Origin: Promethearchaeota archaeon
Lineage (GTDB): Archaea; Asgardarchaeota; Lokiarchaeia; Sigyniarchaeales; SOKP01
Reading direction: 5' to 3'
DNA length: 32,000 nucleotides
NCBI GenBank assembly: GCA_030606485.1
Contig: JAUWGH010000011.1
Location: 33,414 to 65,413, forward strand
In this document: piece after piece, positions 13,676-25,687 of the stretch
How positions within the stretch are numbered: position 1 is the stretch's first letter
Layout of the letters: each line of letters opens with the position of its first letter
Notes under the pieces: model-generated
Told to the model about the DNA's origin: nothing
Seen by the model: only the letters and a program-made list of their open reading frames with translations
The model's database searches: none
Position numbers and translations under genes: made by a program

Positions 13676-14581
13676 TCACTTCTCTTTTATTTCTAATAAC
13701 TCCCACACTTTTACCATTTTATCATATGATCCGCTGACTATGTAGTTTCCATCTGGAGAAACCGCAACCGAAAATACATCAGCTTTATGCCCCCTAAGAG
13801 TGCGAATGAGCCTTCCCGTTCCTAATTCCCACACTTTTACCGTTATGTCCACTGGCCCTGCTCCGCTGACTATGTAGTTTCCATCGGGAGAAACCGCAAC
13901 CGATAACACCTCATCTTCATGCCCTTCAAGAGTGCGAACGAGCATTCCCGTCCCTAACTCCCACACTTTTACCATTTTGTCCCATGATCCGCTGACTATG
14001 TAGTTTCCATCGGGAGAGACCGCAACCGAACTCACATCAGCTTTATGCCCTTTAAGAGTGCGAATGAGTCTTCCCGTCCCTAATTCCCACACTTTTATCG
14101 TTTTATCAACTGATCCACTGACTATGTAGTTTCCATCGGGAGAGACCGCAACCGAATCCACAGGACTTTCATCCTCTTTAAGAGTGCGAACGAGCCTTCC
14201 CGTCCCTAATTCCCACACTTTTACCGTTGCGTCCAATGATCCGCTGACCATGTAATTTCCATCAGGAGAGACCGCAACCGAATTCGCCCAACTTTCATGC
14301 CCTTCAAGAGTGCGAACGAGCCTTCCCGTTCTTAATTCCCATACTTTTATCTTTTTGTCAGATGATCCGCTGACTATGTAGATTCCATCGGGAGAGACCG
14401 CAACCGAATACACACCACCTTCATGCCCTTTAAGAGTGCGAACGAGCATTCCCGTCCCTAATCTCCACACCTTTATCGTTTTATCAACTGATCCACTGAC
14501 TATGTAGTTTCCATCGGGAGAGACCACAACCGACAACACAGTACCTTCATGCCCTTTAAGGGTGCGAATAGACAGTTCCAT
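13676..14581 (-). CDS. WD40 beta-propeller protein, 7 highly similar blades
   Basis: Seven TLxGH/D..V.SVAVSPDGNYIVSGSxDKxxKVWELGTG repeats of 42 aa. Confidence 0.95.
   Translation of the reverse strand: MELSIRTLKGHEGTVLSVVVSPDGNYIVSGSVDKTIKVWRLGTGMLVRTLKGHEGGVYSVAVSPDGIYIVSGSSDKKIKVWELRTGRLVRTLEGHESWANSVAVSPDGNYMVSGSLDATVKVWELGTGRLVRTLKEDESPVDSVAVSPDGNYIVSGSVDKTIKVWELGTGRLIRTLKGHKADVSSVAVSPDGNYIVSGSWDKMVKVWELGTGMLVRTLEGHEDEVLSVAVSPDGNYIVSGAGPVDITVKVWELGTGRLIRTLRGHKADVFSVAVSPDGNYIVSGSYDKMVKVWELLEIKEK
13690..14575. repeat. 126-bp tandem intragenic repeat, 7 units
   Basis: Near-identical units; 54 bp at 14094-14147 are identical to 14472-14525 (offset 378 = 3x126). Confidence 0.95.
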
Positions 14582-15005: not shown

Positions 15006-15413
15006 CTAAAAAAATTCAGATAACCTAAGTTCTGTTGCATCTTCACCATCCAAATTAGGTCCTGGAAAGAGAAAAGGGGAAAGTCCAGCTCCCAATCCAG
15101 CTCCTAAACGAGGATATCTGATTGTTGATAGAACTAATATTCGATTTTTGCCCGCAGCCATTATGAGGATTAAGCCATTATCTCCCTCAATCATAATTCT
15201 CTTTAGATTTCCACGAACAACCTCTAAAACCCCACGTTCTCCTAATGAAAATATCGCAGCGGTCATAGCGGCAATTTTTGTATCATCGATCGCCTCGGGA
15301 AAAACACTTACAATAAGGGACCCCTCTATTGAAACAATTGCTCCAGCCTCAACGTCAGGATTGGACTTAACCAATCTTTTTAATTCTCGCTTAAGTGATT
15401 TTAAATCATCCAT
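15006..15413 (-). CDS. roadblock/LC7 domain protein, copy A (long C-terminal tail)
   Basis: VEAGAIVSIEG, IAAMTAAIFSLGER, LKRIMIEGDNGLILIMAAG: MglB/Robl_LC7 pattern. Confidence 0.88.
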   Translation of the reverse strand: MDDLKSLKRELKRLVKSNPDVEAGAIVSIEGSLIVSVFPEAIDDTKIAAMTAAIFSLGERGVLEVVRGNLKRIMIEGDNGLILIMAAGKNRILVLSTIRYPRLGAGLGAGLSPFLFPGPNLDGEDATELRLSEFF

Positions 15414-15544
15414 TAATTTCTCATTGGATCATTATTTCTCAAATTTATATAAAAATAAATTTAGAAGATAAGTTATTTAATAATTGTGATAGGAACTAAA
15501 TAAAATTTATTAATGTTTTATTCAATCTTATTTCCGCAATTTTT
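15089..15544. repeat. ~455-bp dispersed duplication (roadblock gene, upstream region and 3' end of preceding zinc-ribbon gene); partner at 25065-25519
   Basis: Near-identical by eye over the CDS and the upstream intergenic region; offset about 9975. Confidence 0.92.
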
Positions 15545-15627
15545 CGGATCTTTTTATCTTTCTAGAGACTTTAATATCTTTTAGCAAAATTCTCAATATC
15601 ATATTTCATTCAGTACTATCTTTTTCT

Positions 15628-17602: not shown

Positions 17603-18514
17603 ATGACAAAAACTGAAAAATTATTATCTCAGGCAAAAAAATTTGAAATAGAACATCAATTTGAAAAAGCTGCTACACTTTATATAAAAGCGGCCCAAAT
17701 ATCGTTAAATAAGGGTAATTTGAAAACAGCTACAATTGGGTTTAGTAAGGGGGCAGATTGCTTATATGGTGCTAGAAAAATCAGCAATGGACTAAAATAT
17801 TCTCAACAGGCTTTAGAAATTATCAATAAATTAAATGATTTGAGTGGAAAAGCCGCTATATTGAATAATATTGGAAGAATATTACGTGAGAGTGATGATC
17901 TTGATGAAGCTCTTATGTACTTTAAACGTGCCTTGGAAATTGACGAACAATTAGAAGACTTTATAGGAATAGGTATCAGATTAACTAATATCGCAGAAAT
18001 TCAAGGCAAAAAGGGAGAATTCAGCGAAGCTCTCAAGAACTATCGAAGCGCTATAGTAGTTGTAGAATATACTGGTGATTTGAAGGTTAACGCCGCTATA
18101 TTAAATAATATCGGACTATTATTACACGAGCAAGGCGAATTTGGCGATGCACTCGAATCTTATCTTAAAGCTTTGGAAATTGATGACTTACTAGGGGATT
18201 TAAGGACAAAAGCTATACATTTAACTAACATTGGAGAGCTTTTAGGTGATATGGGCAGGATCGATGAAGGTCTTGAGCACTGGCAACAAGCTTTAAAAAT
18301 AATGGAAGATTTGGACGAAATTATAGATAAAGTTGCTCTATTAAGCCAATTTGGTGAAAAACTAATTAATAAAGATGATTCCGCAAAAGGTTTTGAATAC
18401 TTATTAAAGGCTAGAGAAATTGCCAATAGTGTGAGAAATCCAAATCAAAAAGCATTTCTTTTAGAAAAAATCAACACAATTTTACGAGATAAAGGATTTA
18501 ATTTTCAAACTTAA
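17603..18514 (+). CDS. TPR protein (SNAP-like N-terminus plus 5 x 40-aa TPR)
   Basis: Repeats L.D...KA.ILNNIG......GE..EAL..Y..ALEI. Confidence 0.9.
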   Translation: MTKTEKLLSQAKKFEIEHQFEKAATLYIKAAQISLNKGNLKTATIGFSKGADCLYGARKISNGLKYSQQALEIINKLNDLSGKAAILNNIGRILRESDDLDEALMYFKRALEIDEQLEDFIGIGIRLTNIAEIQGKKGEFSEALKNYRSAIVVVEYTGDLKVNAAILNNIGLLLHEQGEFGDALESYLKALEIDDLLGDLRTKAIHLTNIGELLGDMGRIDEGLEHWQQALKIMEDLDEIIDKVALLSQFGEKLINKDDSAKGFEYLLKAREIANSVRNPNQKAFLLEKINTILRDKGFNFQT

Positions 18515-20784
18515 TGAAAATGTCAGATTTAAATAAACTTAGGCAATTAGCTCAAAAATTTGAGGGAGAATTCCAATATAATGAAGCTGCTAAACATTAT
18601 TTAAAAGCGGCTGAATTAGATTTAAAAAAAGGCAATAAGAATATCGCTGGAGTGGAATTTAATAGAGCTGCAAAATGTTTATATAACATTGGGAAAATTA
18701 ATGAAGCTTTAAATTATTTTGAACGTGCTCTGGAAATTGCCGATCAAGTCGGTGATTTGGCAGGTAAAATTGTTCTATTAAATAATATTGGAGAAATTTT
18801 TCATAATAAACGTGAACTTGATAAGGCATTAAAATATTTTCAACCCGCCTTAGTAATTGCTGAACAGATAGGTATGCTAGAAGGGAAAACAGCTTTATTA
18901 ACTAATATCGGAAGCATCTTATATGAAAGTGGAAAACTCGATGTAGCTCTCGATAACTTTCAACATGCCTTAAAAAATGCAGAACAGTTAGGGGATTTAA
19001 GAGCAAAAGCCACTCTTTTAATCCACCTTGGATTGATTTTTCGCGATAAGGGCGAGATTGATGAAGCTCTTCGGTCATACCAACGGGCTCTGAAAATTGC
19101 CGACCATCTAAGAGATTTGAGAATAAGTTCTAGTATATTAATCAACGTTGGAAATATATTACATGATAAGGGGAAACTCGACGAATCTATCGAGAATTAT
19201 CAACATGCATTGGAAATTTCTGAACAATTAGGCGATTTAAGGGGAAAAATAACTCCATTAACCAATATTGGGGAAATTTTTCGAGATAAAGGAAAGTTGG
19301 ATGATGCTTTTAAATATTACCAACAAGCTTTGAAAATTGCCGAACAATTAGGCGATTTAGGTGGAAAAGCTGCTCTATTAAATAACATTGGCATGGTATT
19401 TTACAATAGGGGAGAGCTAAAGGAGGCTTTAAAAAATTATCATCGTGCTTTGGAAATTGATGAACAGTCGGGATACTTGAAAGGAAAGGCTATCCGATTA
19501 AATAATATCGGTTTGGTTTTATATGATCAAGGCGAACTTGATAAAGCCTTGAAATACTATCAACATGCCTTGGAAATTGATAAAAAATTAGGAAACTTGA
19601 AAGGAAAAGCCGATCGATTAACCAACATTGGAGAGATACTAGTAAATAAGGGTGAATTCAAGAAAGCATTTGAGTGTTACCAGGATGCTTTGGAAATTGC
19701 TAAAAAATTAGGTGATTTGAAGGGTAAAGCTAATCAATTAAACAATATTGGCTTGATATATCTTGATAAAGGCAAGCTCGATAATGCACTTGAGAATTTT
19801 CAACATGCATTGGAAATTTATGAGCAAATAGGCATCTTGGGAGGCAAAGCAGCTCTATTAAACAATATAGGAACCGTTTTATTTGATAAAAATGAAATCA
19901 GTGAGGCTCTCGATTACTTACAGCGTTCATTGAATTTATTTCAGAAGAGAATTGCAGGAAAAGAATTAGACTTCAAAACTGGAATATTATCTTGTCCAAA
20001 TGCTATTTGTTCGGCAGAACTAGAAATTAAAATAATGGGTATCCAGGGAGCGATAATTGAAACATGTCCCAGATGTAATATCCAATTTTCAGTCTGGATT
20101 GATTCTATAAACTCAAAATATCAAATTGGGATACTTTCTGATGAAATTTTTGAAACAAGAAGTATTACATCGGGAACAATAGAATTCCAAGATCAAGTAG
20201 GAAGGAAAACGGAAACAACTATTTCGGAATGGTTAAAGCACGGAGCACTAACGACAGAAAACATCGCAGTTTGCCATAAAATAAGAAAAGATTTCTTAAA
20301 CTCTTGTACAAATTATTACCAAGCGGCAAGTTTATACCGTGGTCTTGGATTTTTGGAGAAATCGGAGAATATATTGAAAATCCTTGAAGATTTGTTAATT
20401 CATATTGATGAGAAAAATAGGGAAATTTTCGTCCATGAGATTGCCCAGCTTCGGAAAAGAACTTCTGAAAGCTTACGCACAAGAGATTTCTCTTACATCT
20501 TCATTTCGTGCCCAAGTTGTCAGAAAGAACACCGCGTTCAAGCCAGTCCAACTACAATTGCAACTAAAATTTGTACTCATTGCCGCGGAAAATTTTCAAT
20601 CTACTACGATGATAACACGGAAGAATTTTACACCAATATCTTAGAAAACCCAGTGGTTAAGACAAGTATTCGAGATAAGGGGTTGAAACGAGATGTTGTA
20701 AAATTTTGCGCGAGATGTGGATTAAAAGTGGGTGAAATTGCACAATATTGTGCGAGATGCGGTTTAAAAATGTTGAGAAAATAG
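18514..20784 (+). CDS. TPR protein (SNAP-like N-terminus, 10 x 40-aa TPR, three C-terminal zinc-ribbon modules)
   Basis: Ten LGDLxGKAxxLNNIG repeats; CPNAIC..CPRC, CPSC..CTHC, CARC..CARC; TAATG stop/start overlap with the upstream gene. Confidence 0.92.
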   Translation: MKMSDLNKLRQLAQKFEGEFQYNEAAKHYLKAAELDLKKGNKNIAGVEFNRAAKCLYNIGKINEALNYFERALEIADQVGDLAGKIVLLNNIGEIFHNKRELDKALKYFQPALVIAEQIGMLEGKTALLTNIGSILYESGKLDVALDNFQHALKNAEQLGDLRAKATLLIHLGLIFRDKGEIDEALRSYQRALKIADHLRDLRISSSILINVGNILHDKGKLDESIENYQHALEISEQLGDLRGKITPLTNIGEIFRDKGKLDDAFKYYQQALKIAEQLGDLGGKAALLNNIGMVFYNRGELKEALKNYHRALEIDEQSGYLKGKAIRLNNIGLVLYDQGELDKALKYYQHALEIDKKLGNLKGKADRLTNIGEILVNKGEFKKAFECYQDALEIAKKLGDLKGKANQLNNIGLIYLDKGKLDNALENFQHALEIYEQIGILGGKAALLNNIGTVLFDKNEISEALDYLQRSLNLFQKRIAGKELDFKTGILSCPNAICSAELEIKIMGIQGAIIETCPRCNIQFSVWIDSINSKYQIGILSDEIFETRSITSGTIEFQDQVGRKTETTISEWLKHGALTTENIAVCHKIRKDFLNSCTNYYQAASLYRGLGFLEKSENILKILEDLLIHIDEKNREIFVHEIAQLRKRTSESLRTRDFSYIFISCPSCQKEHRVQASPTTIATKICTHCRGKFSIYYDDNTEEFYTNILENPVVKTSIRDKGLKRDVVKFCARCGLKVGEIAQYCARCGLKMLRK

Positions 20785-21235: not shown

Positions 21236-21264
21236 CTAAAAAAGATTTTTAGTGAGTGAATTTT

Positions 21265-22560
21265 ATGGAGAAAGTTAAGTATAAAAAATTTGTATATCAT
21301 GTGGAAAATAGGGGGCTAAATTTAAGTGATTTAAAAATTAGTGATATAAGCAAGATTAAAGGACTTGAAAATCTCATGAATCTACAAATATTAGATTTGG
21401 GTGCAAATCAGATTTCTGAAATTGAAGGGCTTGAAAATCTTAAGAATTTACAAGAACTTTACTTTTATAATAATCAAATTACCGAGATTAAGAGGCTTGA
21501 AAATCTTGGGAATTTGAAAAAATTAGACCTTCGAAATAATCAAATAACTGAGATAAAAGGAGTTGAGATGCTCAAGAACCTGCAAATATTAATGCTTTCT
21601 AATAACAAAGGTTCAACTAATGGGCTGGTTATCAAAAAAAATAAAATTTCTGAGATTAAGGGTTTAGAAAAACTCACTAATTTGCAAGAATTATATTTAT
21701 CTCGTAATAATATCTCTGAAATTAAAGGACTTGAAACACTTACGAATTTGCAGAAATTAGACCTTCATTGGAATTATATAAAAGAGATTAAGGGCCTCAA
21801 AAATCTTACAAAATTGAAAACATTAAATCTACAGGATACCCTAATTACTGAGATTAAAGGGTTAGAGAATCTCACGAATTTGCATATATTAGATTTTAGA
21901 GGAAATCAAATCACAGAGATAAAAGGACTCGAAACGCTCATAAATTTGACACGCTTAACTCTTAGTAATAACCAAATCTCTAAGATCAAGGGATTCGAAA
22001 AACTTACAAATTTACAAGAATTATGGCTTGATAGAAATCAAATCTCTGAAATAGAAGGTCTTGAAACTTCCATAAATCTATGGATCTTAAATCTTGGATA
22101 TAATCAAATCTCCGAGATCAAAGGACTAGAATCTCTCACGAAACTTACAACATTTTACCTAAAAGAAAATCAAATCCCTCAAGACTTATTAAATCAATTG
22201 GGTGGTGTAGGTAAAAATGGATTTGCTAAAAGTCCTCAAAATTTGGTAGAATACTGTCGTAAAAAAAGAGAGAAGGAAGAAAAATTGGAAAAGGAATCAC
22301 TCGAAAAAATAAAAAAGATAATTAAAGTATCCACCCGAATTAAACTTGATATGCTTATAGATGCTCTTAAAATGGATACACAAACATTTAACGAAAAAAT
22401 TTTCGAATGGGCAGAAAAATTCGGTTTTACAATTGATGGGGATTATTTAATTACTAATATAGATATGGTTTCAGATTTTATAGATGAATTAGATAAACAA
22501 TTTGCCATATGGGAAAAATCAGAAAGAGAAAAAATCAAAAAATTAAATAATTCGATTTGA
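21265..22560 (+). CDS. leucine-rich repeat protein with C-terminal helical/winged-helix-like domain
   Basis: About a dozen 22-aa LxxLxxLxxLxLxxNQIxEIKG repeats; alternative GTG start at 21256. Confidence 0.92.
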   Translation: MEKVKYKKFVYHVENRGLNLSDLKISDISKIKGLENLMNLQILDLGANQISEIEGLENLKNLQELYFYNNQITEIKRLENLGNLKKLDLRNNQITEIKGVEMLKNLQILMLSNNKGSTNGLVIKKNKISEIKGLEKLTNLQELYLSRNNISEIKGLETLTNLQKLDLHWNYIKEIKGLKNLTKLKTLNLQDTLITEIKGLENLTNLHILDFRGNQITEIKGLETLINLTRLTLSNNQISKIKGFEKLTNLQELWLDRNQISEIEGLETSINLWILNLGYNQISEIKGLESLTKLTTFYLKENQIPQDLLNQLGGVGKNGFAKSPQNLVEYCRKKREKEEKLEKESLEKIKKIIKVSTRIKLDMLIDALKMDTQTFNEKIFEWAEKFGFTIDGDYLITNIDMVSDFIDELDKQFAIWEKSEREKIKKLNNSI

Positions 22561-23413: not shown

Positions 23414-24322
23414 TTACCGTTTGATTTTTTTCTCTTTTTCTTTAATTTCAATGTTTTTTTTCTTAATTAAGTCTTTTAAATAATCAATCTGACTAGTTTT
23501 TCTCATATTTTCTTCCTTTAAATTAGTAATTAATAGTCTTTGTTTTTTCAACTTCTCTTGTAAATCTCTAACAAGATTATGTACAGGTATTTCCTCCTCT
23601 TTAATCTCAATTATATGACCATTTGATTTAGATCCTTTCTTTCTTTCCTGTTCTAATTGTTGCTGAAGCTGAATTTTTTCTTTTCTAAGTAAACCCATGT
23701 TAATCTTTAATTCCCTATATTTTTTTTCTGTTTCTTCTAATTTCAACTGTAATTTTTTAGCATATGCACGTTTTTTTCCGTACTTATCAATTAGATCATT
23801 TAATTTATTTAATTCTTCTCTATATGAGGATATTGATATTTCACTAATCTCTAAATCCGTTTTGAGGTGTTCAATTTCTCTATTTTTAAAATCAAATTCC
23901 TTTTTTATTTGATTTACCTCAACTCTCAGTTGATCTATGCTTTCCTCAATTTGTTCTTTTAATTCAATTCCTTCTTTTGGTTTTATTTCTTGTTTTATTT
24001 CTATTTTATCAAATTTTTTTGCAAGTTTAATACTTTTACTTCCTTCTATAAACTCAAGAAAATCACGGGGCTCTATCCCTTCGTCTACAGGCACAACTGA
24101 ATACTCCAAACCTACTTGCCCTCTAATATCTTGGCTTTTTTGAGCACCAATAAATTTCTTTCTAACTGATGATTCTGCCCCCTTCCATAACCAAATTGTT
24201 TTATCAGGGGGATCACTGATGATAATATACACTTCAAAAGTCTTCAGGATATCCTTTATATCTTTATCGATTTGTATTTCTTCTATTTCTCCAGTTTCTA
24301 ATACTTTAAATATCCGGATCAT
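23414..24322 (-). CDS. gelsolin-like domain fused to a long coiled coil
   Basis: VYIII...IWLWKGAESSVRKKFIGA..SQ.IR....VDEGIEP.DF gelsolin-repeat pattern in the first ~95 aa, then about 200 aa of heptads. Confidence 0.72.
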   Translation of the reverse strand: MIRIFKVLETGEIEEIQIDKDIKDILKTFEVYIIISDPPDKTIWLWKGAESSVRKKFIGAQKSQDIRGQVGLEYSVVPVDEGIEPRDFLEFIEGSKSIKLAKKFDKIEIKQEIKPKEGIELKEQIEESIDQLRVEVNQIKKEFDFKNREIEHLKTDLEISEISISSYREELNKLNDLIDKYGKKRAYAKKLQLKLEETEKKYRELKINMGLLRKEKIQLQQQLEQERKKGSKSNGHIIEIKEEEIPVHNLVRDLQEKLKKQRLLITNLKEENMRKTSQIDYLKDLIKKKNIEIKEKEKKIKR

Positions 24323-24452: not shown

Positions 24453-24974
24453 TTATCTTTTAGATTTCTCATCCAATGCCATTTTTGCAATCCTAGAGAA
24501 AATTTCAGATGCTCCTTCTTTTGAAACAACCGAAGTTTCAATATAGTTCAGTTTAAAATCTTCAATTAATTTCTCAACTTCCTTGTGAGATACAGTAAAA
24601 AAATTGGAATATCTTTTATTTCCCACAAGAAGTATAGGAATACCTACAGCATTCTTCCTAACTAAGTTAATCCAATCAGGCAAATTCTCGAAAGATCTCC
24701 GATCGGCAAAATCGAAAAATAATATCAACCCTTCAGCTCCTTTAACATACTGCGGGAATAAAAATTTGTACTTTTTTTCACTTCTAAAATTCCACAATTG
24801 TAGTTTTACTTTTATATTTGCGATCTCAACATTTTTACTGAAAAAATTAACTCCAATAGTAAGGCTCAGATCCTCCTCAAATAATTTAGGCTTATTAATA
24901 TGACGTGATAAAAGCGCTTTCTTAATCCAGCCCTCGCCTAACATTAATATCTTAAATGTTTCATCAGTCTTCAT
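24453..24974 (-). CDS. Rab/Ras-like small GTPase fold with degenerate nucleotide-binding motifs
   Basis: FKILMLG, TIGVNF, KLQLW, YVKGAEG, FD...SFENL..W, ILLVGNK, YIETS scaffold; G1 GEGWIKKA, G3 WNFRS, G4 NKRY. Confidence 0.85.
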   Translation of the reverse strand: MKTDETFKILMLGEGWIKKALLSRHINKPKLFEEDLSLTIGVNFFSKNVEIANIKVKLQLWNFRSEKKYKFLFPQYVKGAEGLILFFDFADRRSFENLPDWINLVRKNAVGIPILLVGNKRYSNFFTVSHKEVEKLIEDFKLNYIETSVVSKEGASEIFSRIAKMALDEKSKR

Positions 24975-25044: not shown

Positions 25045-25389
25045 TCAGGTATCAATTAAGAAATCTCCTAATCCAGCTCCTAAACGAGGATATCTGGTTG
25101 TTGATAGAACTAATATTCGATTTTTGCCCGCGGCTATTATGAGGATTAAACCATTATCTCCCTCAATCATAATTCTCTTTAGATTTCCACGAGCAACCTC
25201 TAAAACCCCACGTTCTCCTAATGAAAATATCGCAGCGGTCATAGCGGCAATTATTGTATCATCGATCACCTCGGGAAAAACACTTACAATAAGGGACCCC
25301 TCTATTGAAACAATTGCTCCAGCCTCAACGTCAGGATTGGACTTAACCAATCTTTTTAGATCTCGCTTAAGTGATTTTAAATCAACCAT
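25045..25389 (-). CDS. roadblock/LC7 domain protein, copy B (short tail)
   Basis: Near-identical to copy A through RYPRLGAGLG. Confidence 0.88.
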   Translation of the reverse strand: MVDLKSLKRDLKRLVKSNPDVEAGAIVSIEGSLIVSVFPEVIDDTIIAAMTAAIFSLGERGVLEVARGNLKRIMIEGDNGLILIIAAGKNRILVLSTTRYPRLGAGLGDFLIDT

Positions 25390-25519
25390 TAATTTTTCAT
25401 TGGATCATTATTTCTCAAATTTACTAAAAATAAATTTAGAAGATAAGTTATTTAATAATTGTGATAAGAATTAACTAAAATTTATTAACCTTTTATTCAA
25501 CCTTATTCCCGCAAATTTT
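25065..25519. repeat. second copy of the ~455-bp roadblock duplication
   Basis: See 15089-15544. Confidence 0.92.
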
Positions 25520-25687
25520 ACACACTTTTTGTCTATTTTTGAGTTTGCTACCGCAATTCTTATAAAATTTCCTGCTTTTTATTAACACTTTTGTCTCATT
25601 ATCAATTACTTTTATATTTCTATAGCCTTTTATTTTTTCTATTTCAAAGCCATCTAACGTTTTTATCAGTACATATACCTCGATCAC
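25493..25687 (-). CDS. small zinc-ribbon ORF, probably a 3' remnant (first Cys lost)
   Basis: FYKNCGSKL..QKVCKICGNKVE; GTG start. Confidence 0.5.
   Translation of the reverse strand: MIEVYVLIKTLDGFEIEKIKGYRNIKVIDNETKVLIKSRKFYKNCGSKLKNRQKVCKICGNKVE

Follow-up and report, generated by a model that had tools for sequence, protein, structure and literature searches.

A candidate accessory pseudoGTPase with a retained Ras fold in Lokiarchaeia

In this work we have analysed a degenerate Ras-like gene in a 32,000-nucleotide stretch of DNA from a Promethearchaeota archaeon of the class Lokiarchaeia; "the window" refers to this whole stretch. In the reading that we prefer, to which we give a probability of roughly one half, the gene encodes an accessory, class-i-like pseudoGTPase, that is, a nucleotide-independent binder of conditional benefit. 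The ancestor of its clade was already without the P-loop Gly, the following Thr/Ser and the G5 loop, and the core of the protein has been under selection since; later, lineage by lineage, the G4 Asp was lost and, in type A, also the G3 Asp. From the sequence and a structural model, normal-affinity binding of Mg-GTP and switching are predicted to be gone. By what is known of Ras biochemistry, a protein lacking the P-loop Gly and Ser/Thr, the G4 Asp and the G5 loop is unlikely to bind Mg-GTP or to switch. As to its origin, the protein is best read as a product of the Lokiarchaeia RasL ("Rab-like") expansion. The gene and its likely translation start are as follows:

24453..24974, minus strand: open reading frame of a degenerate Ras-like/Rab-like small GTPase, allele type A, 173 aa
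24986..24990, minus strand: GGAGG, a ribosome-binding-like site in the sequence, 11 nt 5' of the ATG

The frame contains no internal stop. Residues 8-165 of the protein match Pfam Ras (PF00071) with E=2.5e-27 and 95.9 bits, and the match covers positions 1-159 of the 162 in the profile, as is characteristic of a full-length G domain. A sequence search of the PDB gave Sec4/Rab as best. The protein contains no cysteine and ends directly after its last helix, so that the C-terminal prenylation cysteines and hypervariable tail of eukaryotic Rabs are both missing. Compared with types B, C and D and with allele P0037, the window allele is 4 codons shorter at its end, with TAA in place of CAA. The host genome (G000) encodes about 36 Ras-like domains, most of them with canonical motifs, and the identity of the protein to its canonical paralogues in the same genome is about 40%.

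The gene occurs as four mosaic allele types, A to D, with identities down to 55%. Type A comprises ten intact proteins from independent assemblies, 94-99% identical to the window protein and all without the G1 Gly and the G3 Asp. Type B, with 55% identity to the window protein, is found in a congeneric genome (G002) and has seven intact members; type C (L045) is intact and 61% identical, and type D (L093) is an allele bearing a stop. All types fall into one clade with 100/100 support, whose stem measures 1.05 substitutions per site. In a tree built without the reference RasL I-IV set, this long branch is nested among Rab-like paralogues and has no resolved canonical sister. A profile search of 400 genomes of the phylum, many of them incomplete and with eight candidates per genome scored, found the clade in G000 and G002 only; otherwise it is present on metagenome contigs. 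Searches of three congeners, one of which is 100% complete, did not find it, nor did the viral contigs searched contain any relative, and a viral location was ruled out on this ground. The top match in a search of 1.84 billion representatives was a type-A representative; when seven further matches were inspected, two were fragments of the clade and five lay outside it. Two fragments, P0057 and P0162, are known at the protein level. Could the unusual motifs be an artefact of sequencing or assembly? This was ruled out, since the core changes are common to the ten independent type-A proteins and to types B, C and D. A private, recent pseudogene with canonical orthologues was likewise rejected: no orthologue is canonical, and every one of the closest relatives is degenerate.

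The motifs are located as follows:

24915..24938, minus strand: G1/P-loop GEGWIKKA (residues 13-20), in which the Gly before Lys and the Thr/Ser are gone and Lys19 is retained
24843..24860, minus strand: G2/RabF1-like TIGVNF (residues 39-44), retained in the window allele and rearranged to ITGVYF in type B
24780..24794, minus strand: G3 WNFRS (residues 61-65), with Asp changed to Asn in type A only and Gly at residue 65 in several type-A alleles
24609..24620, minus strand: G4 NKRY (residues 119-122), with Asp changed to Tyr, His in types B, C and D, and Asp in allele P0037
24525..24539, minus strand: G5 ETSVV, the SAK being gone in all allele types

The preliminary description of this DNA had noted the replaced G1, G3 and G4 motifs, the retained switch I and the open frame, and all of these read as it claimed; the G5 loss and the L123S change were absent from it. 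Against a baseline of 46 canonical rows, the window protein carries G18K, T20A, D62N, G65S and D122Y at positions normally conserved in 91-100%, together with L123S, A149V and K150V, and its TGENV loop has become SKEGA. The active-GTPase pattern GxxxxGK[S/T] is broken in every allele type by the loss of the Gly and the Thr/Ser, the Lys being kept. The G2 Thr, itself a nucleotide/Mg contact, is retained as Thr39 in types A, C and D and is shifted by one position in B. In place of DxxG the window allele has NFRS, and types B, C and D keep the Asp; for [N/T/S]KxD it has NKRY, and P0037 is canonical. In B, C, D and most type-A alleles the G5 SAK/SSK has become SVV or SVI, and in P0036 SIV. Common to all types are G18K, L123S, A149V and K150V/I. 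The losses of the G1 Gly, the Thr/Ser and G5 occur in every type and so date back to the common ancestor of the clade. At the G4 Asp, type A has changed to Tyr and types B, C and D to His, both codons being one base away from GAT. With four of five motifs degraded and, in the model, an intact fold, the protein falls within the sequence definition of a pseudoGTPase (PMC5593906).

Is the loss concentrated on nucleotide-contact residues, as was initially proposed? For whole pocket loops it is, with 13 of 21 conserved positions lost against 3 of 23 elsewhere (p=0.0014, the list having been set after seeing the data). For direct contacts the enrichment is weak, both for the strict motif residues (Fisher p=0.31) and for a Ras-derived contact list, also set after seeing the data (p=0.054). 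The hydrophobic core retains 42 of 46 positions.

An AlphaFold2 model of the protein shows a complete Ras fold, which comprises six strands and five helices (pLDDT 80), and Foldseek relates it to Rab/Ras with a TM of about 0.8 (0.78 to 7EZB). Helix alpha1 begins at residue 15, 4 residues earlier than in a canonical paralogue modelled likewise, where it begins at residue 19. Residues 21-40 score about 50, whereas in the paralogue they score near 90 and the P-loop is open. The modelled extension into the P-loop resembles the arrangement in p190RhoGAP pG1, whose phosphate site is closed off by a lengthened alpha1 (PMC5593906).

The retention of Lys19, Lys120 and Ser148 in nearly all alleles, and the NKxD of P0037, speak against a pseudoGTPase. 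Together with Thr39, which persists just as widely, these residues could instead serve an atypical nucleotide-binding G protein of class ii or iii (compare Rnd and RGK) whose affinity would be low or whose base specificity would have changed; RGK proteins are active despite diverged motifs. The G3 Asp of types B, C and D and the G3 Gly of many type-A alleles would fit such a protein, as would the constraint on the pocket loops between A and C (dN/dS 0.34, p=0.0014). However, in A/B and B/C the pocket loops (range over the comparisons 0.34-0.61) are not distinguishable from neutral, no type retains Gly18 or Thr/Ser20, and almost all have lost the G4 Asp and G5 loop. Moreover, the residues lost differ between types, and the P-loop is modelled, at low confidence, as a helix. 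We regard an atypical binder as unlikely.

In IQ-TREE, codon fits were better than with a fixed value. A custom MG94 maximum-likelihood fit gave a dN/dS of 0.49 for A/B and 0.32 for A/C, with p=0.004 and p=2e-6, respectively, for the difference from 1; such pairwise values are biased by recombination between alleles, and one A/B pair (L038; 0.65, p=0.09) does not fall significantly below 1. Among the site classes, both the hydrophobic core (0.17-0.32) and the non-switch surface (0.34-0.41) are significantly below 1 in all comparisons. Frames have stayed open over a dS of 0.7-0.8, whereas a neutral simulation at dS 0.7 gave about 11 stops, no stop-free run in 1000 and an identity of 25% compared with the 55-61% observed. 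As dN/dS is below 1 and the frames are open against the neutral expectation, the gene has been kept as a folded product after the loss of G1 and G5. The proposal that the change was not random decay is thereby borne out, as relatives share the G-motif loss together with purifying selection on the fold, and canonical motifs in orthologues, together with a dN/dS near 1 for this copy, were not found. This constraint is weaker than in canonical paralogues: among 13 single-domain genes of this kind compared between G000 and G002, twelve are 85-99% identical with dN/dS 0.03-0.22. It is also weaker than in a baseline of 121 genes from these two genomes.

It may nevertheless be that the gene is a once-useful duplicate, now without function and slowly decaying, in which the constraint reflects earlier selection or the avoidance of misfolding for as long as the gene continues to be read. 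Three of the 21 inspected alleles are broken: L093 has TAA at codon 84, L094 lacks one base in a T run near codon 45, possibly through an assembly slip, and L046 is without its 5' part and carries a further stop. This count is a floor because protein-based searches favour intact forms, and the same bias applies to the 18 intact alleles, with dS up to 0.8, that tell against decay. Erosion of the pocket is ongoing among type-A alleles (F32S/V, K18R, E146K/T147A), several within-A pairs have dN/dS of 0.7-1.1, and the region is patchy and rearranged, with a truncated roadblock duplicate. Vargova et al. also term some unplaced Asgard Ras-superfamily sequences "possibly even pseudogenes". On the other hand, early stops would be tolerated in a functionless gene, the non-switch surface is constrained as well as the core, and polymorphism within type A (15 non-synonymous and 12 synonymous variant codons, pN/pS about 0.3) is like that of the downstream gene. 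Slow decay is in our view possible, and we hold it tentatively as the second reading.

The alleles themselves are more divergent than their surroundings would suggest. Types A and B differ by a dS of 0.61 and a dN of 0.33, compared with medians of 0.165 and 0.034 (dN/dS 0.19, identity 93%) for 121 baseline genes between G000 and G002, and the gelsolin-like/coiled-coil gene that lies beside the 55%-identical type-B GTPase in G002 is itself 96% identical. Types B, C and D are more than 95% alike in their C-terminal halves and differ in their N-terminal halves, and codons 11-30 of A and D are 92% alike, which indicates that the alleles recombine. The switch surface is the fastest class, with dN/dS of 1.16, 0.54 and 2.06, none of them significantly different from 1 and the last inflated because the C-terminal half has recombined. 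Could the protein be a decoy in a host-parasite conflict? A dead GTPase with a diversifying switch face that mimics the one on functional host GTPases might absorb viral or rival-element effectors aimed at the roughly 35 real GTPases, and balancing or diversifying selection would then keep old, recombining alleles. The deep divergence, the mosaic alleles and the fast switch surface are what such a conflict would leave, but no site class is significantly above 1, no relative lies on viral contigs, and relaxed constraint with lateral exchange of old copies yields the same pattern. A decoy seems to us improbable. The preliminary description had also offered a scaffold or decoy role, and a conserved one is not supported: the clade is present in 2 of 400 genomes, some alleles are broken, evolution is several-fold faster than in canonical paralogues, and neither a stable presence nor a measurably conserved switch surface or partner surface was found.

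The surroundings of the gene contain the following features:

23414..24322, minus strand: gene for a gelsolin-like N-terminal domain and coiled coil, 302 aa, downstream of the GTPase and its only constant neighbour
25045..25389, minus strand: Roadblock/LC7 gene that duplicates part of 15006-15413 at 97% and has a replaced 3' end
25063..25066, no strand assigned: cassette junction, the 5' limit of the sequence that the window allele has in common with types B, C and D, with type-specific DNA upstream

The gelsolin-like/coiled-coil gene follows the GTPase wherever the contig reaches far enough; a complex prediction for the two products gave an uninformative score of 0.11. This neighbour looks chimeric, its N-terminal domain matching C2:161095 and C7:39110 and its coiled coil C2:93702, and its alleles encode 292, 302 or 310 aa. 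The roadblock gene lies upstream in most type-A alleles only and is missing upstream of B, C and one type-A allele. A fixed, MglAB-like roadblock module was ruled out by this synteny, as the linkage is not constant. The variable upstream genes include the roadblock gene, an RNase H region, zinc-ribbon and small ORFs and an HNH-like gene, and they differ in L031, L040, L045 and L047. Downstream of the coiled-coil gene, other strains carry a different roadblock gene (L034). The two roadblock copies of the window lie within a direct repeat of about 470 bp (15006-15559 and 25045-25534), 9975 bp apart. In the surrounding 18 kb, matches to congeners are short pieces only. One small RNA run, searched as contigs, covered part of the neighbouring gene and not the ORF at 24453-24974, and a promoter scan with a bacterial model, which is not suited to archaea, stayed at chance level. 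Elsewhere in the window, a plasmid- or island-like set at the contig end (27397-30734) comprises a ParB/DUF488 fusion, a NucS-like nuclease and a ParA-like ATPase. The regions 17603-20784, 21256-22560 and 13676-14581 hold two adjacent TPR genes meeting at 18514, a gene for an LRR protein and one for a WD40 protein carrying 126-bp repeats of recent origin.

How might a pseudoGTPase of this kind act? We propose that it would be a permanently folded, nucleotide-independent binding module, perhaps moving as a two-gene unit together with the gelsolin-like/coiled-coil gene. Its likeliest action would be to occupy or tune a partner, either a GTPase regulator or the product of the neighbouring gene, with a small and conditional benefit, and this would explain why the gene is patchy, recombining and sometimes lost. 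Conservation of the core and the other surface, but not of the switch face, makes it more likely that any partner would bind at a site away from the switches; AAGAB demonstrates that such domains can bind partners in this way. Being rare, fast-changing and sometimes broken, the protein appears to be an optional "dead switch" rather than a conserved scaffold.

With the Asgard RasL ("Rab-like") GTPases (Thor-Rab, PDB 7EZB; PMC10933270; PMC4915359; bioRxiv 10.1101/2024.02.28.582541) the protein shares a single G domain with the Ras fold, RabF1/F2/F4-like segments and the absence of C-terminal prenylation cysteines. It differs from them in its degenerate G1, G3, G4 and G5, long branch, narrow range, several times higher dN/dS and broken alleles; Thor-Rab hydrolyses GTP, whereas the window protein is predicted not to. 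It resembles MglA-MglB modules in the roadblock gene directly upstream on the same strand, in the window and most type-A alleles; however, that gene is a 3'-altered partial duplicate and not constant, and the best matches of the GTPase, in structure as in sequence, are Rab/Ras, not MglA. The class of pseudoGTPases is well established (PMC5593906, PMC12490416), and its known members are mostly eukaryotic; with these the protein has in common an intact small-GTPase fold with several degraded G motifs. The eukaryotic examples are evolutionarily conserved and their lack of nucleotide binding comes from assays, whereas the present protein is archaeal, stand-alone and accessory, retains the P-loop Lys and the G2 Thr, and is known from its sequence and a model. 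Our literature search found no paper naming a pseudoGTPase in Asgard archaea, and rapidly evolving Asgard offshoots have been acknowledged (Vargova et al.) with the wording quoted above. Motif loss in the clade forms a natural stepwise series that begins with G1 and G5 and continues, separately, with G4 and G3, one allele having NKxD, and this series could be assayed for how a switch becomes a non-switch. An unusual feature is the divergence of its alleles, four times the synonymous background of the genome, beside an almost invariant gene, which would matter if balancing selection turned out to be at work.

The value of the discovery is limited, as the gene is accessory and the same genome has more widespread families of degenerate GTPases. 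A 269-aa GTPase-like protein with a Cys-rich C-terminal tail (L096:2766-3575, minus strand, corresponding to G000:C8:184768-185574) has matches in 39 of 61 genomes of the family; in the 12 loci inspected G1 is eroded and, outside the genus, G4 too. It is a candidate for a more widespread pseudoGTPase than the protein at 24453-24974. A 326-aa protein (L095:3163-4143, plus strand, corresponding to G000:C10:229162-230139) has an N-terminal extension as well as a degenerate G domain, in which G1 reads GLKDEQKN and G4 and G5 are lost; it is present in 10 of the 61 family genomes, with an internal stop in three matches. Lastly, we observed two partial Ras-like ORFs (G000:C2:24291-24719 and L097:2574-3362, both on the minus strand), one cut after G4 and one beginning at G3; the latter continues with a second G1/G2-like segment and a membrane tail and is possibly permuted or split.
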